A stretch of 64,000 nt of DNA from Escherichia phage rV5_ev147. The stretch lies in the sequence record LR597647; one strand, given 5' to 3'. The position numbers were made by a program, and so were the translations under genes. Shown one piece after another: positions 12,819-55,599 of the stretch. The notes under the pieces were generated by a model that ran no database searches, was not told where the DNA came from, and was given only the letters and a program-made list of their open reading frames with translations. Numbering within the stretch: the first letter of the stretch is position 1; the number at the start of each line of letters is the position of its first letter.

Positions 12819-13097
12819 ATGAGCTGCGAAAAATCTTTTTTCATCATCATTTACGGTAAGGATAACTGCCCACATTGTGTCAGAGCAAAAGAATTTGCAA
12901 TCAGCAAAGGTCTGCCTTTTGTATATAAGACACTTGGCGAGGGCTACACAAAAGAAGAGCTTATTGAGAAGTGCAGTCCAATTGTCCCCAGAACGTTGCC
13001 GCAGATCTTCTTAGAAAGCGATCTTGACAGTGTCCATATAGGCGGTGCCGACGATTTCATCTCTTTTGTTAAGAATGGTTTTGGAGAGAAAAAGTGA
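12819..13097 (+). CDS. glutaredoxin/NrdH-like redoxin
   Basis: CPHC active site in first 20 residues, 92 aa. Confidence 0.7.
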   Translation: MSCEKSFFIIIYGKDNCPHCVRAKEFAISKGLPFVYKTLGEGYTKEELIEKCSPIVPRTLPQIFLESDLDSVHIGGADDFISFVKNGFGEKK

Positions 13098-15217
13098 AAG
13101 TTGTAAAACGGGACGGTAGAGAAGAGTTCTATAACGGAATTAAGGTGATCAAGGCGGCAGAGTCCGCCTTACTTGAGTCTGGACATACTGAAGAAGAAGC
13201 TTACCGGATCGCCTGCGCGGTTAATGAAGTTGTTGCTAACAATCTACCAACCGACCAGTGCACGATCTCTGTAAAAAATATCCATATCCTTGTTGAAGAT
13301 GCTCTTATGGATATGGGTTTAAAATGTGCAGCCAGAGAATACATCCAGTATAGACAGACAAGAGATAATAACAGAGAGGCAGGTGGAAAACTGCTTGCAG
13401 ATATTAGTGGCTTCTTGGATCGAACTTGTGATGAATTTACAAAAGAAAACGCAAATAAGCCTACTAATCATGTACACACTCATCGCGACCTGCTTGCAGG
13501 TATTCTTAGCAAACACCTTGCATCAACACAGATCCTGCCAGACCGTGTCTCCGAAGAGCACAATAAAGGATTCATCCATGTGCATGATCTTGACTACTTG
13601 ATCAGTCCGTTAACAAACTGTTGTTTGGTAAATTATCCAGATATGTTGGAAAACGGATTCAACATTGGTAACGCCCATGTCAGTAAGCCGAAGTCAATAG
13701 GGGTTGCAACAACAATCCTTAGCCAAATCTCTAGTGCGGTAGCTAGTGCTCAATATGGTGGTCAGACTATGAGCCATATTGATCATTATCTGGCACAGTA
13801 TGCTGAAGCAACCTATGAGAAGAACCTTAAATTTTGCCAGGAACATTGGTTGCCGGATGCTGAAACTGTTGCAATGCAAATGACAGATAAAGACGTATTT
13901 GACAGCATGCAGACTTTGCTCTATCAAATCAACACGTTAACTTCTGTCAACGGGCAAACTCCATTCATCACATTGAGTTTAGGACTGGATACCTCGGTCT
14001 TTGGTAGAATGATTACCAAAAACTACCTGAAAGTCCACAAAATGGGTCTTGGTGAAGAACGTATCACACCTGTGTTCCCTAAAGTGCTGTTCTTCCTGGA
14101 AGAGGGTGTCAACATGAACCCTGGGGATCCTAACTATGATTTGAAACGATTAGCTCTGGAATGCTGTGCAGAACGTATCTATCCTGACTTCGTATCTGTA
14201 CCACTAAATAGAAAAGTGACAGGCTCGACAGATGGCAAAGTAACTAGCATGGGTTGCAGGAGTTTTCTTAGCAAATACAATGACTTGGAAACAGGCGAGG
14301 AGAAATACCTTGGCAGATTTAACTTAGGCGTTGTTAGCCTTAACCTGCCAATGATTGCGGCAAAAGCCAAGACGGAAGGTGTTGATTTCTTTGCAGTTCT
14401 TGACGAATACTTGGATCTTGCATACGAGGCTCACCTTGTAAGGGTTAATCGTCTAAAAGGAACAAAGGCAGGGCAGAACCCCATCATGTGGTGTGAAGGC
14501 GCTCTTGCTCGCCTGGATCCTGAAGAGAGTATTGATAAACTCTTCTATGACGGGTACGCTTCCATCAGTATTGGGTATATCGGTGTGTATGAAACCTGTC
14601 AGATTTTGGGCAGAGAGGGTGACAAGGCTTTAGCTCTTGGAATCCTTCAGCACATGAGAGATGCTTGTGAGCGATACAAGAAGGAAAGTAGACTAGCATT
14701 TAGCTTGTACGGCACTCCTTCTGAGAGTCTATGCTATAAAGCTGCAACCTGTCTGGATCGTGAATATCCGGAAGTGTTGAAGCACGAGCATGAATATCTC
14801 ACCAACAGTTTCCATCAGCCAGTATGGATAAATAGCTCTCCTTTTGATAAGTGGGAGTATGAGGAAGGTTTTGCTATGATCTCCTCTGGTGGCAACATCG
14901 GATACGTAGAAACACCTAACCTGAAAAACAACCTAGATGCTTTAGAGGCTCTTGTTGACTTCGGGTATAAACACATTATGTATTTTGGTATTAACCAACC
15001 TGTGGATAAATGTCTCAAGTGTGGTTTCTCTGGTGAGTTCAGTGCAACAGCTAAAGGCTTTGTATGCCCAGAGTGTGGAAACCATGAAGAGGGAACGATC
15101 AGTGTAATTCGACGTGTGTCTGGATACCTTTCCAGTCCTAACTCCCGTCCTTACAATAAAGGTAAGCAAGCGGAAGTTATCGAGCGAGTTAAGCACTACG
15201 GAAGTTGTGGTTGCTGA
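13094..15217 (+). CDS. nrdD: anaerobic ribonucleotide reductase NrdD (class III), GTG start
   Basis: ATP-cone VVKRDGREE, C-terminal CxxC...CxxC and glycyl-radical motif RVSGY. Confidence 0.85.
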   Translation: MKVVKRDGREEFYNGIKVIKAAESALLESGHTEEEAYRIACAVNEVVANNLPTDQCTISVKNIHILVEDALMDMGLKCAAREYIQYRQTRDNNREAGGKLLADISGFLDRTCDEFTKENANKPTNHVHTHRDLLAGILSKHLASTQILPDRVSEEHNKGFIHVHDLDYLISPLTNCCLVNYPDMLENGFNIGNAHVSKPKSIGVATTILSQISSAVASAQYGGQTMSHIDHYLAQYAEATYEKNLKFCQEHWLPDAETVAMQMTDKDVFDSMQTLLYQINTLTSVNGQTPFITLSLGLDTSVFGRMITKNYLKVHKMGLGEERITPVFPKVLFFLEEGVNMNPGDPNYDLKRLALECCAERIYPDFVSVPLNRKVTGSTDGKVTSMGCRSFLSKYNDLETGEEKYLGRFNLGVVSLNLPMIAAKAKTEGVDFFAVLDEYLDLAYEAHLVRVNRLKGTKAGQNPIMWCEGALARLDPEESIDKLFYDGYASISIGYIGVYETCQILGREGDKALALGILQHMRDACERYKKESRLAFSLYGTPSESLCYKAATCLDREYPEVLKHEHEYLTNSFHQPVWINSSPFDKWEYEEGFAMISSGGNIGYVETPNLKNNLDALEALVDFGYKHIMYFGINQPVDKCLKCGFSGEFSATAKGFVCPECGNHEEGTISVIRRVSGYLSSPNSRPYNKGKQAEVIERVKHYGSCGC

Positions 15218-15280: not shown

Positions 15281-15397
15281 ATGTCATCAGGTATTTATAA
15301 AATTTGCAAGTGCGGCTGTAGTTGTAATCTTCGTTGGTGCAAGGCACTAGACGATTTTATTTGGCATTGCCCTAAATGTGATGCGGAGTATCTATGA
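15281..15397 (+). CDS. 38-aa Cys-rich zinc-ribbon-like micro-protein
   Basis: AGGAGG RBS; CKCGCSC...CPKC; ATGA overlap with nrdG start. Confidence 0.4.
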   Translation: MSSGIYKICKCGCSCNLRWCKALDDFIWHCPKCDAEYL

Positions 15398-15867
15398 ACA
15401 TTGCTGGATACACAGAAATATCTTACACCGAAGGACCAGGTATTAGAACTGCCTTGTGGGTATCTGGGTGCCCACACGCTTGCCCTGGTTGCTTTAATCA
15501 GGCATTTTGGTCAAAAGATAAGGGGAGGAAGTTCACTGAAGAAGACTTGCAAAAAATCTTGTCAGATTTAGATAACCCGTCTGTGTGCGGTATCTCTCTA
15601 CTGGGTGGAGAACCCTTAGCATACTATAATGAGCCAGATATTATTAGCCTGATGGAGAAAATTAAGGAAAAATTTGGTGACAAGAAAACTATTCTTGTAT
15701 ATACTGGGTTCACATTTGACCATATCTCTAGTGATGTTCTTAAACTGGCTGATATCATCATTGACGGTAAGTATGTAAAAGATTTACCAACCAAGAAACC
15801 GTTCCGAGGCAGTGATAACCAAAGAATGTTTAAAAAAGTATCAGGCGGTTGGGTTCAGGTAGACTAG
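15394..15867 (+). CDS. nrdG: anaerobic RNR activating enzyme NrdG (radical SAM)
   Basis: CPHACPGC radical-SAM cluster motif. Confidence 0.8.
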   Translation: MNIAGYTEISYTEGPGIRTALWVSGCPHACPGCFNQAFWSKDKGRKFTEEDLQKILSDLDNPSVCGISLLGGEPLAYYNEPDIISLMEKIKEKFGDKKTILVYTGFTFDHISSDVLKLADIIIDGKYVKDLPTKKPFRGSDNQRMFKKVSGGWVQVD

Positions 15868-40661: not shown

Positions 40662-40859
40662 TTATTTGCCTTTGTGGCGGTATCGTTCCGCCTGTCGTTC
40701 ACGTTCCAAAAGCAGGCCCGGTAATTTGCGATCATAATGATTCCGCCAGATCTTCCCAAATCTTTTTGGCTTATTCAGTTTATTGTTGCGCTGGCGGCGT
40801 TCCGGCAGCTCTTCGGAAGCATGAGATCGCTTTACAATCTTCTCAAAATTAATCTTCAT
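40662..40859 (-). CDS. hypothetical basic protein
   Basis: RBS aggggggaa before ATG at 40859. Confidence 0.4.
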   Translation of the reverse strand: MKINFEKIVKRSHASEELPERRQRNNKLNKPKRFGKIWRNHYDRKLPGLLLERERQAERYRHKGK

Positions 40860-40913
40860 ATATTCCCCCCTTGCTAACTTCAATATTGGCCTGAATAGCC
40901 CGGATACGGCGCT

Positions 40914-41201
40914 TTATAACTTCCTGATCTGTGTGATCGTATCCCAAAAGTCTACGATTTTTGCGCCTCCAGCCTTTAGGCGGTATAGTGTTTCTTGCAT
41001 CTTGTAAGCCGGGATCGGTCGCGGTGTTACCTGGTCGCCCTTCTCATTCTTGTACTTGATAATATAGTCTTCATTGTCGTTGAATACCCAAAACGGGTAT
41101 TCTGTAAGGGCGTTGCTATCTTTTTCGTTTTTAGATTGGATCTTGTTTACAATTAAAGCCGTAGCAATAGCGCCAATAATAAAACTTGCCCCGCTGATCA
41201 T
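40914..41201 (-). CDS. small protein with N-terminal TM segment
   Basis: RBS aaaggagaaag before ATG at 41201. Confidence 0.45.
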   Translation of the reverse strand: MISGASFIIGAIATALIVNKIQSKNEKDSNALTEYPFWVFNDNEDYIIKYKNEKGDQVTPRPIPAYKMQETLYRLKAGGAKIVDFWDTITQIRKL

Positions 41202-48371: not shown

Positions 48372-49598
48372 TTAGAATGGGATGTCATCATCAAAGGCGT
48401 ACTGTGCTGGATTCTGATCCATCGGGTCATCTTCCTCGTCATTTACAGGAGGAGCGTCTACAGTGTTTTGCTGTGGAGCTGCTTCCTGTTTGGCAGCTTG
48501 AGGTTCTTGATGGTCAGTGGACTCAGCACCGTTCTTGATCCAATCGTACAACGGCTCAGCCAGATTAGTCAAGACATCTTTTGCTTCTGCAGTAATTGCC
48601 GCTGCAAAATCATCAACTTTCGTTTTCTTGTCAATACGGCGACAAGCGTTCAACACCGCATTACCGACACTGGCACCTACTTCATCTTCAGTTCGGTTGG
48701 TGGCTTGAGCATACTCTTTCTTAAGCTCAATGGTGACTACGTGCAGTGTTTTAGCCACGCTTAGTGGGTCATCCACTTTAAACCCGCGATCCAGGATGAT
48801 CTGCAAAGCATTGATGCTATGCCCCGTCTCTACACCAATAGGGTCGTAAGAGGATTTACGCTTGCCACCAGAGCCTTGAGTGCCGTTCTCTGCCTTAGGT
48901 GGATAGGCTTTGAAACCACTGATAATGTTTCCGGTGTCTTTGTCAACAATGGCTGCAACACGACCACCTACTACCAGGTCTTTAAGCTGCTCATCAGTGA
49001 CAACCATAGCACCTTCGCCAATCTTGTGGTCATTAACAGTAACCACGTTGCCAACAATCTGAGTCACATCACCATAGATGCGTAAAACGTCCTGATTGGC
49101 ATTCTGCTGAGGTTTCTGCTTCTGGCCTTGTGATTGTGCACCTTGTTGCTGTTTTTGCTGTTGAGTCGCTGCTGGGGCCTCTCCTGCACCCAGCTTAACC
49201 ATTTTAGCCAGTGATCCTTTATAATAGGTCTTACCGTTATGCTCGTTTGCCTTCAAAGGGATATTTACGATCCATCCCGGCGTTACGGTTTCCCACTTGT
49301 CATCAATTTTAACAGAGACAGAGTCTTGATGACCAGGTTTAAGCAGCTTATCACCCATACTGATCCAAACTTCTTCACCACCTTGAAGCAGGTTATCAGA
49401 GGAATCCAGTTCAGAAATCAGTAAAGAGATGGTGTGGCTGGATTCAATTTTCTTACCTTGCCACACAGTGGTTTTAATACCTGTTGTAGGATCAGCACCT
49501 TTGATAGGTTTGATGCTGACACGTTTAATCATGCCGTGAGCCAGTAAAACAGTTTCACGCGGATTCATCGGGTTAGCAAATTGTTGAATAACGCTCAT
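48372..49598 (-). CDS. ssDNA-binding protein-like, with E. coli SSB-type C-terminal tail
   Basis: C-terminus ...YAFDDDIPF (E. coli SSB ends ...MDFDDDIPF); Q/G-rich low-complexity linker; next to replication genes. Confidence 0.55.
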   Translation of the reverse strand: MSVIQQFANPMNPRETVLLAHGMIKRVSIKPIKGADPTTGIKTTVWQGKKIESSHTISLLISELDSSDNLLQGGEEVWISMGDKLLKPGHQDSVSVKIDDKWETVTPGWIVNIPLKANEHNGKTYYKGSLAKMVKLGAGEAPAATQQQKQQQGAQSQGQKQKPQQNANQDVLRIYGDVTQIVGNVVTVNDHKIGEGAMVVTDEQLKDLVVGGRVAAIVDKDTGNIISGFKAYPPKAENGTQGSGGKRKSSYDPIGVETGHSINALQIILDRGFKVDDPLSVAKTLHVVTIELKKEYAQATNRTEDEVGASVGNAVLNACRRIDKKTKVDDFAAAITAEAKDVLTNLAEPLYDWIKNGAESTDHQEPQAAKQEAAPQQNTVDAPPVNDEEDDPMDQNPAQYAFDDDIPF

Positions 49599-49963: not shown

Positions 49964-50046
49964 TATGGAATCTCCGATTTTATTTGAACAACATAGAAGG
50001 AGACACTATTTTAGCATCCCCTTCTGTAAATTACAATAGGTATTTG

Positions 50047-50292
50047 TTAGCCAATCACTTCGAAAGTTCCCCAATTCCCGTCCAGCAGGCAGGTGATCGG
50101 ATCTCCATCGTCGTCAAAGATTTCAAAGTTTTCAGCATCCAGGATGTGGCCCTCGAACACAATACTCTCGTCGCCACCACCAGAAATAACAGCGTATTCC
50201 TTACCTTGAGTCAAGTTTTGACACCCTTTGCCACCAAAACCTACTTCCACACAACGTACTTTCTGTCCTGCGCGAGCAACTACTTCAGCCAT
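50047..50292 (-). CDS. hypothetical acidic protein
   Basis: RBS aggagac. Confidence 0.4.
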   Translation of the reverse strand: MAEVVARAGQKVRCVEVGFGGKGCQNLTQGKEYAVISGGGDESIVFEGHILDAENFEIFDDDGDPITCLLDGNWGTFEVIG

Positions 50293-50309
50293 CTTAAGGT
50301 CTCCTGATA

Positions 50310-50630
50310 TTAATCGTCAAGTTCAAAATAGATTTTAACAGCTTCATCAAAGATTGGAATCCCGATGTTGTTGATAAGCTGCCAAACTACCATATCTTTA
50401 CCTGGATCTGGGAGAATGTCAACCTTTCTCCATGCGCTGTATATCCAGTTCGGACCACCTTCTGCACTAACTGGCAGATTTTCACCAGCTTCCTGTAGAT
50501 ACTTATACAGCAAAAGATATTCTGGATACTCTAGAACACTGTCCTCTGTAGTATATAGCAGTTCACGGTATACTTTTAAAAACCCTGCGGGGGTGATGTT
50601 TTCAGTCTTCATTTGCTGCTTCTCCTGCAT
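50310..50630 (-). CDS. hypothetical protein
   Basis: ORF. Confidence 0.45.
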   Translation of the reverse strand: MQEKQQMKTENITPAGFLKVYRELLYTTEDSVLEYPEYLLLYKYLQEAGENLPVSAEGGPNWIYSAWRKVDILPDPGKDMVVWQLINNIGIPIFDEAVKIYFELDD

Positions 50631-50994
50631 TCATCAGATCTGCCATAGCGTCACCAACGAAGAGGACAACCACATCGTTGACAGCGTCAGCATCATCTTT
50701 GTTGACGTTGCTGAATTTAGGACACACAGCAATGATCATATAGACACCGTTGCCCACCTGAACTGTCCGTGTGGTGCACATCATGGCGGTATTTGTGCCT
50801 TCTTTGAAGGCGAAGCCTTGAAGACGCTCCTCTAGAGTGTTACCGGTAGATTTCAGAAGCGCCAGCTCGTCCAAGGCATAGATGATATCTCCGGAAGTTA
50901 GTGTTGCCTTTCCATCAGACACCATAATCACTCCATCAGCACCGTCAAGCTTAGAGGCTTCAAAGATATCAATATCCCAAATATTTTTCATCAC
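50602..50994 (-). CDS. hypothetical protein
   Basis: ORF. Confidence 0.45.
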   Translation of the reverse strand: MMKNIWDIDIFEASKLDGADGVIMVSDGKATLTSGDIIYALDELALLKSTGNTLEERLQGFAFKEGTNTAMMCTTRTVQVGNGVYMIIAVCPKFSNVNKDDADAVNDVVVLFVGDAMADLMNAGEAANED

Positions 50995-51263
50995 GCTTCC
51001 TCGTCGTCTAAGTAATCATCAAGAGAGGTGAAGATTTCACCGAAGTATTCTAAGATTTCTAGCTCACGTGTGGTGCAGCAAACATAATCTCCTTGGTCGT
51101 CCTTAATAGTGGCCTCTTTACCCAGAATATCTACTTCAAGTTCATCGTTCAACAGGACGGCCCCTGTGTAAACTTTGTCAGCTGTGCAGTCCCGAAAAGC
51201 AGAGTCCTTCTCCAGATAGTCTGGCTTAACCTTGGCTTTAATTCGTTGATATTGTTTGGTCAT
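50991..51263 (-). CDS. small protein, paralog family 3
   Basis: DSAFRDCT and KDDQGDYVCCT shared with 51327-51581; RBS aagggg. Confidence 0.45.
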   Translation of the reverse strand: MTKQYQRIKAKVKPDYLEKDSAFRDCTADKVYTGAVLLNDELEVDILGKEATIKDDQGDYVCCTTRELEILEYFGEIFTSLDDYLDDEEA

Positions 51264-51326
51264 TGCTGTGGTCCCCTTTCGTTTTGATAGGGCCATTATA
51301 GTAGGCCCTATCACTGTTGTCAAGTA

Positions 51327-51581
51327 TTAATGTTCAGGTTTTACAAAAACTACTTCATTAACAGTGCACCAGACAGAGTCTCCTTCATCATCTTTAAAGG
51401 TAAGGCACTGTGCTGAGTTTTCCAGCTCATCGATCTCTTCTTGTGATAAAGGGGCCCCTTCTTCCAGGAGGGCTTTTACCAGAGGGTTCTCACAAAACTC
51501 TGCTTCATAAATTGCACCGACTGTGCAATCTTTAAAAGCTCGGTCATTTGCAACGCATTCTGACTTCAAAGTAATTTTCAT
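51327..51581 (-). CDS. small protein, paralog family 3
   Basis: DRAFKDCT and KDDEGDSVWCT. Confidence 0.45.
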   Translation of the reverse strand: MKITLKSECVANDRAFKDCTVGAIYEAEFCENPLVKALLEEGAPLSQEEIDELENSAQCLTFKDDEGDSVWCTVNEVVFVKPEH

Positions 51582-51657
51582 CTTAGCAGTCTCCTTAGTT
51601 ATTTAAAAATCAACGCTCTGTTTGTGTAAAGCATCTTATATCTAATCTTACTTCTTG

Positions 51658-52056
51658 TCAATGACTATTTTCAATCAGCCACACAGGGTCGAGGTAAATT
51701 TGTTGGCGTGTTGCCCAATGACAAACTTCATTGTACATCTGAACCTCTTTGTCCGTCAGTTCACGAATAGGCTCATCTATACCCCCATTTTTGTGGTAAT
51801 CCCAGTCGGCATCGATTTCCCACAGCCATGACTTGTTGTCACCACGCTTACGCACACAGAAGTCACCAGGACGGCCTGCCAGTGCATTTAAGAACTCGTT
51901 CTCCGCTCGCTCCTGAAGAATACTAAGGAGCAAAACGTTGGAGCATGACCGTAAAATATGCTTCAGCTCACAATCATCAATCTCAACTTCAATACGTTGT
52001 TTGACTGTGTGGGTACCTTTTACTAACATACTACCTCCTCTAAACGAACTCTGCAA
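51658..52056 (-). CDS. hypothetical protein
   Basis: ORF. Confidence 0.45.
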   Translation of the reverse strand: MQSSFRGGSMLVKGTHTVKQRIEVEIDDCELKHILRSCSNVLLLSILQERAENEFLNALAGRPGDFCVRKRGDNKSWLWEIDADWDYHKNGGIDEPIRELTDKEVQMYNEVCHWATRQQIYLDPVWLIENSH

Positions 52057-52234
52057 GAGTTGTGTTGTTCACTGCACCGCAGTAAATGGAGTATCCCAGC
52101 CCATTAGAGTGCAGAAACCACGGCGTGCCGAAATTATCTTTCACGTAGACATCACCGTTGTTTGTAAAGGGCCAATATTCTTCCCCAAGGGTAAAATACC
52201 TATTCATACCTTCAGCAAGATACTTTACTTTCAT
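52040..52234 (-). CDS. small protein, paralog family 4
   Basis: VKDNFGTPWFLHSNG aligns with 52231-52458 and 52455-52862. Confidence 0.45.
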   Translation of the reverse strand: MKVKYLAEGMNRYFTLGEEYWPFTNNGDVYVKDNFGTPWFLHSNGLGYSIYCGAVNNTTLAEFV

Positions 52235-52458
52235 AGGTCCTCTTCAACAACTACAAACTTGGCAAGCAAAGTGGTTCCGTAGATATGATACTCGCCGTTT
52301 GCCAGATGGGAGATAAACCAGGCAACCCCTTCCTCGTCTTTAATCATTTTATTTGCACGAGCTTTATCGTAATAAACCTCGTAGGTCTTTCCTTCTTTAA
52401 AGAATGACAGGTCTGTCATCTTTTCTTCTACAAAAGTAGCTTTAACCAAAGTTGTCAT
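52231..52458 (-). CDS. small protein, paralog family 4
   Basis: IKDEEGVAWFISHLANG. Confidence 0.45.
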   Translation of the reverse strand: MTTLVKATFVEEKMTDLSFFKEGKTYEVYYDKARANKMIKDEEGVAWFISHLANGEYHIYGTTLLAKFVVVEEDL

Positions 52459-52862
52459 TGATCGGTCTCCTTCTTGTTAAGTCTGAATACTGCAATAATA
52501 GCATTCCCAAGGTGCAGTGTCAAATCATTTCCAAGATACCACAGCATCCCACGGTCATCTTTAATGAAAGGGTAGCAATTTGGTGCCTTCTCTTTAATGA
52601 AAGGGTGACAATCTGGTGCCTTCCAGACATTGTACACTTTCCCAACCTGAAAGAAATCAGGCCCTGTCGGGATTTTGGTGCCTGGCCACACTTGAGATAC
52701 CTGAACACACTCCACCTGCATAATAACAGGGATAGTCATGGATGTAAATGTTTTTGTTGGCTCTACTACCATAAAAGTCTCCTCTTTGCTCAACAACACT
52801 TCCATGTGTTGATAGTTTACATTAGTGACAATCACCCCAATTACGACCACACAAGTATTCAC
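52455..52862 (-). CDS. small protein, paralog family 4 (with internal 11-aa duplication)
   Basis: IKDDRGMLWYLGNDL; KAPDCHPFIKE/KAPNCYPFIKD tandem. Confidence 0.45.
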   Translation of the reverse strand: MNTCVVVIGVIVTNVNYQHMEVLLSKEETFMVVEPTKTFTSMTIPVIMQVECVQVSQVWPGTKIPTGPDFFQVGKVYNVWKAPDCHPFIKEKAPNCYPFIKDDRGMLWYLGNDLTLHLGNAIIAVFRLNKKETDQ

Positions 52863-55599
52863 CTGTGATCTGGAACGGGACTCCCATCATTTTAGAAGCT
52901 TGCCAGAAGCAATGCACCACCATTTCACCCACAGGGCTCCAGATAAGTTCAAGCTTCCCGTCATCGTTCAGGATAGGATCGTACACCGTGTTTCCGTCTC
53001 TGTCAACCACTTCGTTTCCGTTCTCATCCTTGCGTGCCTTTTTGTACTTATGACCGTCAAACACATGAAGTTTGGCTTCCTGCTCTGCCTTAAATGCTTC
53101 CAATTCTTCAATTGTGTCGAAGGTGTACACAGTCTTATACTTAGGCGTGTCAGGGACTTGAAGTTGGTACTCATCATGGTAATAAATAATACGACGAACA
53201 CCTTCATCGTACCACCCACGCTTCACCATTTGGTGGTGCATGAGTATCCCAACTAAGTCACACAACGATGCACCGCCATTTTGTTGGTATGCATTGAGTA
53301 AAGAGTGTTTAGATCGAGTCCAGATAGCATGACCATCAAAAGAGTAGATAAACTTCTTACCCGTTGCTTCCCAGAATTTCTCCAGATCTTCTTTACGCCC
53401 CTTAAGACCCGGGTTGGCATCCCAGAGTGCATCGATTACCCTTTGTCCCAACTCTGGAGAGATATCCAGCATATCTGCAACTTTATCTTTTTGTGCCCCG
53501 TACATAACCCCATACGTGATAGGTTTACCGTCGTTACGAGATACCTCTCTGCCTGCTACTTTTGTATATGCCTCGGCGTTGTTTTGGTGTGCGTCTCCGT
53601 TACTTACAACATCATAATACAAGCCGTTGTCGAACTCAAAGGCACCCCAAGCCCCGATAAGCTGCTCTAAGTTGGACCCGTCAATACCGATCTCAAAGTA
53701 TCCCGGAGGAACACCCCACAGACTACGCATCTCTTTACCCATAACCACTTTAGGAGATGGTTTAGGCATGTTCGCACAAATACTGTGTTTCTGTCGGGAA
53801 GTGTTTGTTAACCCAGAACTTTTAGCAGGAAGCTTATGGTCAATCTTCAAACGTGGGTGATTAAGAAGACCAGTATCAACCTTATCCTCCTTGATTGGAT
53901 CAAGTACCGATCTGCGGTTTCGCAATGATAACCACAAGACGATATCTTTAGCCATCTCTCCGTTCAATTTTTCAAGATTAGGGCATAGGTGTCCAAACGT
54001 ATCTTTCAGTTGCGGAGAAGTAATAAGTGCCCTAGCTTTTCTACGTATTTTCCCGAATACTTCCTTTTTAATCCTTTCGGAGTTAGGAAAGCTTCGGAAC
54101 TTGTGCACGGTTGTCTGGAACTTAGCATCAGTTTTGTTCCAGAAGTTGATAATCAGGTCACAATACTCTGACTCTAAAAGCTCGTCCATATATGCATATA
54201 CTCGTGCATCAACATCTGCATCAGGTAGAGCTTTCTTCTTGCTGTCTTTAGTTACATCCTTAGTTCTCCACATTGTCGGAAGCCAACCAGCACTGATCAG
54301 GTATCGCTTAATGTCGTCCTGGTTGCTGATTTTCATAGGTATCTTGCAGTCCGGCATTCGCTTCTGCTGTAGATCACTTATTGCCTGATCCATTAGCTCT
54401 TTAGGTAAAGGTTGTGGTGTGGAGGTGCCCTTAATATAGCCTCTCAAGAAATCAGCCATCTTATCGGGGTCTTTGCAGCCCATCTCTTCACACCATTTTA
54501 TCCCCATCTTACTGACATCTCCTGTAGAGGTAAATGCTCGCTTAGGCGGGGCTTTGAACTCTAAAGCGCTCATATCTACAGGATAGCCAAGCTTATCTTT
54601 TAACCATTTCCAACCATTATTGGAGATTGTCCCATCTTGGTTAAACGGCTTTTCAGGGAACTTGGGCCGCTGAGACATTGACAGCTCTTTTAAAGGTAGT
54701 TGCGGTTCAACACGATCAGCGATTTCTTTCATCCACGCATCGCAACGGTCACGTAAAGCAATAGCCCCATCTATGTCAAAATACACACCCTGACGGGCCT
54801 GCAGCTCCATCAGGAAGTGCTGCAGCATGCCTCGGCGTAATGCGTTCTTCCAGGTGATCTTCTTGAACCCTTTCGGCTTCTCTTTGGCAGGATCGTACAT
54901 AAAGTTCTGCATGTCAGATTTGCCGTAGAATACACCTTTTGATTCCGCTACCAGCTCTTTCCAGAGCAGCTCCTGGATGATAACGTCCTCGAATACACGA
55001 TCCACATACTTCCACAACGGAAGATCGCGCCAGTCATCAATTTGAACTTTCTGGTTACCAAGGGCGTAGCCCCATGCCATAAGGCCGTGAGGACCGACAG
55101 GCTGCATTTTCTTAGTAACCGGGTTGAATACAGAGTCCGGACAACCTTTTGGTAAAGGGCGATCAGGCCATAAGATTCGGCTCATCGCCAACGTATCAAA
55201 CAGGTTGACCTGGTGGTCGTTGATAGTCCCCATGCATTTAGGATCACGGAACATATCAAAATGAATACCGGATAATCTTTCCATCAGCATAAAGTCATAA
55301 CTGTAGCAGTTATGGCAGTTCAAAGCTGTTGGTGACCAGTCGGAATTGCCTGTAAGCCAACCTTCTAACTCCGAAAAATCTGCTATGCGAACTTCAAAAT
55401 CTTTATAAAGAGTTTTCTTTGCCAGAATAAAGTTCTTAGCCTTCTCTATATCCTCCTCGGAGTAGTGTGTGCGGTCATTTAGAGGAAGGAACAGCATAAA
55501 ACGGTTCTTATTCAGCTCTTTAAACAGGCCGCAGTGATAATAAAGATCTGGGTCTTCCAGCAAACCGGATGACTCAAAATCGAAAGACCACATGCTCAT
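52822..55599 (-). CDS. DNA polymerase, family A, with N-terminal 3'-5' exonuclease
   Basis: Exo I FDFESSG; motif B-like KPITYGVMYGAQ; motif C YYHDEYQLQV. Confidence 0.85.
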   Translation of the reverse strand: MSMWSFDFESSGLLEDPDLYYHCGLFKELNKNRFMLFLPLNDRTHYSEEDIEKAKNFILAKKTLYKDFEVRIADFSELEGWLTGNSDWSPTALNCHNCYSYDFMLMERLSGIHFDMFRDPKCMGTINDHQVNLFDTLAMSRILWPDRPLPKGCPDSVFNPVTKKMQPVGPHGLMAWGYALGNQKVQIDDWRDLPLWKYVDRVFEDVIIQELLWKELVAESKGVFYGKSDMQNFMYDPAKEKPKGFKKITWKNALRRGMLQHFLMELQARQGVYFDIDGAIALRDRCDAWMKEIADRVEPQLPLKELSMSQRPKFPEKPFNQDGTISNNGWKWLKDKLGYPVDMSALEFKAPPKRAFTSTGDVSKMGIKWCEEMGCKDPDKMADFLRGYIKGTSTPQPLPKELMDQAISDLQQKRMPDCKIPMKISNQDDIKRYLISAGWLPTMWRTKDVTKDSKKKALPDADVDARVYAYMDELLESEYCDLIINFWNKTDAKFQTTVHKFRSFPNSERIKKEVFGKIRRKARALITSPQLKDTFGHLCPNLEKLNGEMAKDIVLWLSLRNRRSVLDPIKEDKVDTGLLNHPRLKIDHKLPAKSSGLTNTSRQKHSICANMPKPSPKVVMGKEMRSLWGVPPGYFEIGIDGSNLEQLIGAWGAFEFDNGLYYDVVSNGDAHQNNAEAYTKVAGREVSRNDGKPITYGVMYGAQKDKVADMLDISPELGQRVIDALWDANPGLKGRKEDLEKFWEATGKKFIYSFDGHAIWTRSKHSLLNAYQQNGGASLCDLVGILMHHQMVKRGWYDEGVRRIIYYHDEYQLQVPDTPKYKTVYTFDTIEELEAFKAEQEAKLHVFDGHKYKKARKDENGNEVVDRDGNTVYDPILNDDGKLELIWSPVGEMVVHCFWQASKMMGVPFQITGEYLCGRNWGDCH

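Follow-up and report, generated by a model that had tools for sequence, protein, structure and literature searches.

Tandem paralogs among the small minus-strand genes of an rV5-like phage, with a predicted Gp54-type beta-barrel in one family

Background

Gp54 of Escherichia phage Bas11 (JohannLBurckhardt) is a non-essential protein of 66 amino acids (aa), which triggers the toxin-antitoxin defence protein CapRelSJ46 by binding its pseudo-zinc-finger antitoxin domain (PMC11578894). Its crystal structure (9AXB; Zhang et al., Nature 2024, PMC11578894) is a six-stranded small beta-barrel with a prominent beta1-beta2 loop, a fold described in 2024 as very rare (PMC11578894). G24D and W43* are CapRel escape mutations of Gp54, and close homologs with three substitutions fail to activate CapRel (PMC11578894). 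Are there barrels of this kind in other phages, and in more than one copy? Here we describe five small minus-strand genes, named A to E, in a stretch of 64,000 nucleotides (nt) of Escherichia phage rV5_ev147 (sequence record LR597647). The whole stretch is called the window, and it forms the right-hand end of the genome of a phage of rV5 type (Vequintavirus). A reading of the window from its letters only (the sequence-only reading) had proposed that A and B are a pair of tandem paralogs and that C, D and E are a triplet.

In large lytic phages it is common for small accessory genes to occur as tandem families. The paralogs treated here are not mentioned in the rV5 genome paper, and neither their paralogy nor the fold assignment was found in other literature. 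Literature searches on small-gene function in Vequintavirus, and a paper on gene essentiality by phage transposon mutagenesis, yielded nothing relevant.

Results

Two families of tandem paralogs

The motifs from which the paralogy had been proposed are all there. Gene A carries DSAFRDCT and IKDDQGDYVCCT, and gene B carries DRAFKDCT and FKDDEGDSVWCT, so the shared patterns D-[SR]-AF-[RK]-DCT and KDD-[EQ]-GD-x-V-x-CT are exactly as described. The core [IV]KD-x-x-G-x-x-W-[FY]-[IL] is present in all three other genes (VKDNFGTPWFL in C, IKDEEGVAWFI in D and IKDDRGMLWYL in E). Are the similarities only a matter of chance or composition, or are these open reading frames (ORFs) perhaps not genes? The proteins and the motifs are short, which speaks for such a view. 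Ten neighbouring genes were compared in all 45 pairings, and the Smith-Waterman scores were set against those of 500 composition-preserving shuffles. The pair A-B has a score of 91 (z 14.9, Gumbel p 3e-9), followed by D-E (z 9.0, p 5e-6) and C-D (z 6.5, p 1.3e-4). For all three the observed score was attained by 0 of 500 shuffles, and all three survive correction for the 45 pairs. The direct comparison of C with E is weak and alone not significant (z 2.6), and these two are joined via D and via isim_172, a protein of the related phage isim that is described below. The remaining pairs have z <= 3.1.

The profile methods agree with the shuffles. When alignments of the orthologs from six phages were compared by hhalign, the values were 2.4e-7 for A-B, 3.4e-5 for C-D and 1.7e-5 for D-E, and all other pairs among nine neighbouring genes gave P >= 0.0037. 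When hidden Markov models (HMMs) of the families were run against 1215 stop-to-stop ORFs, only the expected partners were retrieved (A to B 1.4e-7, B to A 1.4e-6, C to D 4.8e-4, E to D 3.1e-4). These comparisons confirm the A/B pair and the C/D/E triplet as paralogs with robust statistics, and the members of each group are neighbours on one strand, as the sequence-only reading had it. The shuffles and profiles, the ratios of nonsynonymous to synonymous substitution rates (dN/dS) far under 1 with many synonymous changes, the conserved ribosome-binding sites and promoters, and the confident fold of D (all given below) refute the view that the similarities are accidental or the ORFs not genes, and its probability is practically nil.

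Age and conservation of the copies

The paralogs are about 30-38% identical in protein, and there is no DNA similarity between them beyond a 22-nt patch over the KDD-GD motif. Gene order and content are identical in LL12, FV3, HMD-6, S127 BCL3, JLBYU08 and isim. Synteny is kept in all six phages of a comparison that covers three Vequintavirus lineages. In tblastn searches D and B were found in 115 phage records, all of rV5 type, and all copies are fixed, with their order unchanged, across the approximately 115 Vequintavirus records that hold them. The dN/dS ratios in Table 1 were calculated by the Nei-Gojobori method, chiefly against FV3 and S127, with dS up to 0.79. All five genes are real and under purifying selection. 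The low identity, the missing DNA similarity and the fixation across the genus place the duplications long before the radiation of the genus, with constraint on each of the copies since then. They are ancient events and not a continuing process.

Table 1. Coordinates in the window of the five genes, nearby signals and a possible relative
Feature	Position	Strand	dN/dS	Description
Gene E	52455..52772	-	0.01 (low as polymerase; vs FV3 and S127)	105 aa; first after DNA polymerase gene; C/D/E family; PHROG 12922; annotated coding sequence in rV5_ev156
Gene D	52231..52458	-	0.12-0.14	75 aa; central C/D/E member; predicted six-stranded small beta-barrel
Gene C	52040..52234	-	0.10-0.12	64 aa; third C/D/E member; PHROG 12802
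Gene B	51327..51581	-	0.06-0.13	84 aa, isoelectric point (pI) 4.2; A/B family; tentative SH3-like barrel with two-helix insert absent from A
Gene A	50991..51263	-	0.11; 0.30 vs JLBYU08	90 aa, pI 4.2; A/B family; PHROG 11936
Promoter upstream of B	51633..51661	-		sigma-70-type TTGACA-17-TAAGAT; scan 10/12
Promoter upstream of A	51295..51323	-		perfect sigma-70 consensus TTGACA-17-TATAAT; scan 12/12
Promoter-like site within 3' end of E	52495..52523	-		TTGACA-17-TATTAT; 11/12; extended -10 TG
In-frame 33-bp tandem duplication within E	52558..52623			Tandem Repeats Finder: period 33, 2 copies, 90% match
Gene g50047	50047..50292	-		81 aa; possible distant relative of both families; PHROG 4927

Some forms of B deserve a remark. 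In JLBYU08 this gene is frameshifted at its 5' end (L011:3912-4133), giving 73 aa with an unrelated N-terminus, and truncated forms of 46-76 aa occur in several other assemblies (P0037-P0044), including vB_Eco_Alma. This suggests either that B is dispensable in some lineages or that there are homopolymer sequencing errors.

Is local duplication then a general feature of the genome, as had been claimed? An all-vs-all BLASTP of the 129 window proteins gave two more local families, both on the plus strand. One consists of 23877/24091 (1e-12) and 20315/23877 (8e-6) with weaker links to 25962 and 26230, and the other of 24385/26562 (1e-6). Neither has a sequence relationship to A/B or C/D/E. Like these, the families 20315/23877/24091 and 24385/26562 are made of short genes on one strand, lying close together and some of them adjacent, with low but significant identity. 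Thus the claim stands in that further families exist, but the duplications are ancient and only about a dozen of the 129 genes belong to such families.

Relatives outside the locus

A fourth member of the C/D/E family was found in isim. The protein isim_172 (78 aa; MN850597.1 121873-122109; L016:21874-22110, plus strand) lies between nrdD and nrdG; it aligns with D at z 9.4 and with C at z 8.3, and it is also a Foldseek match of the D model. By tblastn it has no counterpart in the window, where nrdD is at 13094-15217 and nrdG at 15394-15867. Judged by its alignments, isim_172 is clearly a dispersed family member, variably present in other Vequintaviruses, and its label 'putative minor capsid protein' is probably wrong.

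A search of 1.84 billion cluster representatives with the C/D/E profile gave 9 matches, including P0050 and P0046, slightly more divergent orthologs of C and D. Three of the nine are not single-domain relatives: two proteins of 1008 aa and 452 aa that match in several short stretches, and P0051, a metagenomic protein of 204 aa in which two tandem D-like domains are fused to a C-terminal DUF3310 (PF11753, 4e-21). These domains align with D at z 9.8 and 8.5 (HMM 4e-8), as high as D's own paralogs. It therefore appears that a widespread family of phage proteins, whose PHROG label is 'nucleotide kinase', also uses the D-type small barrel, repeated at the N-terminus. A match of the same profile to a hybrid two-component sensor kinase/response regulator (3v9f; full-sequence E 0.0057, best stretch independent E 0.12) was set aside as a convergent hairpin motif 'D-x-x-G-x-x-W-f'.

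Two weaker candidates were picked out post hoc. One is p206 of Certrevirus DU_PP_IV (L019:14797-15018, minus strand; 73 aa), beside glutaredoxin and nrdB, with z 6.5 to C and HMM E 0.85. The other is gp50 of Bas10 (L014:12665-13030, minus strand; 121 aa), seven genes from the Gp54 homolog, with z 5.2 to D and HMM E 0.21.

How did the copies come to lie side by side? They might have been acquired separately by recombination from other phages, so that adjacency is incidental. In favour of this, the accessory regions of phages are mosaic, domains of the same kind are found in other places (isim_172 next to the nrd genes, P0051, and weakly p206 and Bas10 gp50), and A and B have their own promoters like independent cassettes. 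However, the nearest detectable relatives are the genes' own neighbours, and almost nothing was found outside Vequintavirus in the 1.84 billion representatives. The copies are adjacent and on the same strand, with E, D and C overlapping, and the GC (guanine plus cytosine) content is even across the region. Apart from the P0051 domains, no closer relative was found in the window, in the loci of four other genera or in the whole Certrevirus genome, nor among those representatives. Separate acquisition is thus quite improbable, and in-place tandem duplication is the most economical origin, given the adjacency, the common strand and the overlaps at E-D and D-C.

Gene starts, promoters and expression

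The start of E differs from the one first given. The sequence-only reading had put the 5' end at 52862, a GTG, but an ORF extended to this point runs into the final 41 nt of the polymerase gene, which stops at 52822. Ahead of the ATG at 52772 lies a conserved GAGGAG ribosome-binding site, and the 94-position PHROG profile begins at the same Met. The start is therefore placed at 52772. Compared with D, E has an N-terminal extension of roughly 20 aa. For A, the start at 51263 was right: an AAGGGG ribosome-binding site lies ahead of this ATG, and the longer form annotated in rV5_ev156 uses an upstream ATG that falls inside the conserved -10 box of the A promoter. The gap of 63 nt between A and B is a promoter spacer. 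The A promoter is kept in six phages with a single T->C in the -10 box of HMD-6, and for the B promoter both hexamers are invariant in six phages with a variable spacer.

The promoter-like site within E lies about 40 nt upstream of the D start. FV3, LL12 and JLBYU08 all retain both of its hexamers, although E has diverged at synonymous positions in other places, and the site may serve D and C as an internal promoter.

The packing of E, D and C raises a further question, whether they are subunits of one hetero-oligomeric complex, pseudo-symmetric partners that came from duplication. ATGA overlaps of stop and start codons join E to D and D to C, and a gap of 10 nt separates C from the next gene, g51658. 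This packing implies translational coupling and matched expression, and the three are retained together in every Vequintavirus examined. On the other hand, tight packing is normal for phage operons and unspecific, the rates are unequal (dN/dS of E 0.01 vs about 0.12 for C and D), and the fourth member stands alone at a distant locus in other phages. We consider such a complex rather unlikely.

The 33-bp duplication in E encodes the repeats APDCHPFIKEK / APNCYPFIKDD, and by alignment with D it doubles the loop and strand carrying the family IKDD motif. Between the two copies there are about 3-6 nt differences, and neither of them is identical with the single-copy allele. The duplication is absent from FV3, LL12, JLBYU08, HMD-6 and S127. 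Among the matches listed (78 of 102), only rV5_ev156, ev158, ev168, slur12, slur16 and APECc02 have the 105-aa allele, which shows as one unbroken match of 116 nt; the other listed records have an 83-nt span and a 94-aa E. The idea of a strain-specific duplication was therefore rejected, and it is a minority allele common to six phages.

Predicted folds

AlphaFold2 was run for D on an alignment of 17 orthologs with C and E, and the model has a predicted local distance difference test (pLDDT) of 89.7 and a predicted template modelling score (pTM) of 0.78. Its strands are at residues 2-10, then after a long loop at 25-31, 36-40, 46-48, 57-60 and 64-73. By this model D would be a six-stranded beta-barrel of about 65-75 residues with a long beta1-beta2 loop, and C and E would be so by homology. 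The predicted structure agrees with the Gp54 type as seen in 9AXB in both features, the six-stranded small barrel and the prominent beta1-beta2 loop. It was made without templates, and 9AXB, released in 2024, is later than the training of the AlphaFold2 weights used. Foldseek against BFVD found the D fold at template modelling scores of 0.7-0.8 in many small proteins without characterisation, from Drexlerviridae and from other phages of enterobacteria, and one genome often has several of them (four in phage NBD2). The fold was also found in Cronobacter phage CR9 and in the 78-aa protein of isim.

In searches of 5.8 billion proteins, and by tblastn against phages, homologs of D and B were near-identical Vequintavirus orthologs only, so the alignments used for folding were shallow. 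For B the AlphaFold model has a five-strand core and two helices at residues 33-56 (pLDDT 74.6, pTM 0.55), and the helix segment is missing from A. The SH3-like structural matches of B include the KOW domains of Spt5, C-terminal domains of retroviral integrases, PAZ and the N-terminal domain of Hpy99I. From this model of B it is tentatively proposed that A and B are SH3-like barrels.

Do the two families then share a fold and an ancestor? By prediction, tentative for A/B, both fall in the class of small SH3-like barrels; the signal of common ancestry between A/B and C/D/E is not significant (hhalign P 0.05). The 'KDD-x-G' present in both families may be a tight beta-hairpin turn. The gene g50047 shares C..T..G..Y and DDxGD...C with A and B, yet reaches only z 3.1 to B; its hhalign P values are 0.007 against A/B and 0.008 against C/D/E, and it has z 4.2 to the D-like domains of P0051. 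PHROG 4927, to which g50047 belongs, is matched by P0051, and PHROG 10169 is matched weakly by both g50047 and D. A single superfamily of A/B, C/D/E and g50047 is hinted at by these signals, but none survives multiple testing.

The locus and the replication module

Bases 50000-54000 are 100% identical with Escherichia phage rV5_ev156 (LR694165.1), and they match 118 phage records, all rV5-type, at 90-99% identity to almost all. The records with a taxonomy line are Vequintavirus, and 16 were deposited under Campylobacter phage names. The whole window is the final 64 kb of the rV5_ev156 genome bar one 1-nt difference at window 40944, in the gene 40848-41201 (minus strand): one T fewer than in LR694165.1 (...CGTATC[T]CCAAAAG...), which shifts the reading frame of the annotated 117-aa gene of that record. 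Either the variant is genuine or the difference comes from sequencing.

The genes A-E lie directly downstream of the family-A DNA polymerase gene (52822-55599, minus strand). In the direction of transcription the order is helicase/primase, polymerase, E, D, C, g51658, B, A, g50602, g50310, g50047 and g49598. The small-gene stretch ends at a protein of 408 aa (48372-49598, minus strand) with a Gln-rich linker and the C-terminus ...YAFDDDIPF. No Pfam or NCBIfam match was found for it, and it is annotated as a putative single-stranded DNA-binding protein (SSB) in JLBYU08. The end ...DDDIPF matches the protein-interaction tip of E. coli SSB. It is likely a phage SSB, marking the end of the small-gene stretch.

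The polymerase gene is uninterrupted here, and immediately upstream of gene E there is a presence/absence polymorphism. Near the 3' end, an HNH homing endonuclease or an intron-like insertion interrupts the polymerase in FV3 and isim. HMD-6 and JLBYU08 also have a split gene, with no endonuclease annotated, and in LL12 the annotation gives an intron. In FFH2 and WalterGehring the alignment is broken into separate pieces, and the annotation under the match names an HNH or homing endonuclease.

The position between helicase/primase and the SSB-like protein leads to the main rival to the role that we propose in the Discussion. The small barrels may be accessory factors of the replisome, which bind the phage polymerase, the helicase-primase, SSB or DNA, with copies serving different replication steps. 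The genes lie inside the replication module, the SH3-like matches of B include nucleic-acid- or polymerase-associated domains, and E is conserved to the same degree as the polymerase. A core partner, however, should co-vary with the polymerase. Seunavirus 4MG, Mydovirus Mydo, Certrevirus DU_PP_IV and Vibrio phage ICP1 have related polymerases (50-66% identical), yet neither family was found in the slot that follows the polymerase gene in these phages, and unrelated small genes stand there. In the whole genome of DU_PP_IV no significant member of either family was found. Moreover, the net charge of A and B (-12) and the pI of C and D (5) are unfavourable for DNA binding, the closest structural relative, Gp54, is non-essential, and B is frameshifted or truncated in some isolates. 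A replisome role is therefore judged fairly unlikely.

Discussion

What might these old duplicates do? We lean, by somewhat more than an even chance, towards the view that they are non-enzymatic protein-binding modules for host takeover or counter-defence, in an accessory stretch between the DNA polymerase and SSB-like genes. The analysis shows paralogy, genuine and conserved genes under selection, promoters, and a predicted fold that matches Gp54; we infer that the proteins bind other proteins, that their target lies in the host or its defences, and that the copies have specialised. E, D and C would probably be co-translated from the polymerase operon, as their overlapping stop and start codons suggest, and the internal promoter-like site in E may add to this. 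B and A would be expressed from their own conserved sigma-70 promoters. The small barrels would then dock onto host proteins, components of host takeover or defence. Duplication followed by divergence would give copies with different partners, each kept by purifying selection.

Several observations favour a role in host takeover or counter-defence. One is the precedent of Gp54, which binds an immunity protein. Another is that the families are confined to one genus, and that sister genera hold other small genes in the slot. A further one is acidity, which is typical of many phage inhibitor proteins: the pI is 4.2 for A and B (net charge about -12), 5.0 for C and D and 5.2 for Gp54. The occasional loss or frameshift of B and the presence or absence of isim_172 point in the same direction.

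Some results should be noticed that count against this view. Searches of Pfam, NCBIfam, PHROG and PDB by sequence yield no informative functional name, and each gene has its own function-unknown PHROG. Selection is purifying throughout, not the positive selection expected in an active arms race, and E is constrained like the polymerase. The model of B is moderate, as only one of five models was reasonable and four had pLDDT <= 61. As to Gp54, the triggering of one defence protein says little about its normal role, and since close homologs fail to activate CapRel, such activation is no property of the whole family. The likeness to Gp54 is not seen in sequence either. PF25180 (gathering score 27 bits, to which Bas11 Gp54 scores 116 bits) gave nothing at E <= 10 against C, D, the 94-aa E, P0046 and P0050, and the C/D/E profile against the Gp54 family gave an hhalign E of 0.49, so that common ancestry is not supported by sequence.

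All members of the Gp54 family, to which Gp57 of Bas10 belongs (recovered from MZ501077), carry Pfam PF25180 'Phage antiviral trigger protein Gp54'. The PHROGs differ, 7421 for Gp54 and 12623/12802/12922 for C/D/E. In the low-scoring hhalign alignment F20-x-x-G23 and G44-x-x-W47 of D are paired with F21-x-x-G24 and G40-x-x-W43 of Gp54. A link of C/D/E with Gp54 by sequence was rejected, and the likeness is structural only.

One may go further and imagine that C/D/E and isim_172 are a diversified battery of Gp54-type barrels, which either act as inhibitors of zinc-finger-like sensor domains in bacterial immunity proteins, CapRel-type or other, or are recognised by such domains. Their divergence and the strand-duplication allele of E would then be footprints of immune evasion or decoys, and the barrels would be a widespread and so far unrecognised class at the immune interface of coliphages. 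We regard this scenario as doubtful.

What is gained by these results? There is now a structural handle on five 'hypothetical' genes in about 115 rV5-like records, some of which are candidates for therapy or biocontrol. If the models hold, the Gp54-type fold is extended to a second phage family and is multi-copy there, and together with the many BFVD matches this suggests that the fold is common among small accessory proteins of coliphages. Nothing is overturned and no new kind of system is proposed, as the families are an ordinary expansion of phage accessory genes. Two things become testable: whether the barrels trigger or block CapRel-like or other defences, and whether the paralogs have distinct partners.

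Comparison with known systems

For the A/B family the comparison is with SH3-like barrels, such as eukaryotic SH3, KOW, the integrase C-terminal domain and YorP of a B. subtilis prophage (2HEQ). Unlike these, B has a predicted two-helix insert, and the signature residues for binding of proline peptides are absent, as is sequence similarity. A fold class common to A/B and C/D/E would be no demonstration of homology between them.

Gp54 and C/D are alike in being small (64-75 aa), acidic and single-domain proteins among small accessory genes, with the same six strands and long beta1-beta2 loop as far as the D model goes. The phages are different, as Gp54 comes from a siphovirus of Drexlerviridae and C/D/E from a 136-kb myovirus. 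For Gp54 no paralogs are reported (no test was made here), whereas C/D/E are three tandem copies with a fourth elsewhere in relatives. E, unlike Gp54, is extended at the N-terminus, and in this phage one of its strands is duplicated. A further case is P0051, whose tandem domains of about 65 aa carry W-x-E-G-K-E-Y ... I-E-D-D-x-G-T-x-W and are clearly related to D. In P0051 the copies are fused in one polypeptide, while in the rV5-like phages each copy is a separate gene.

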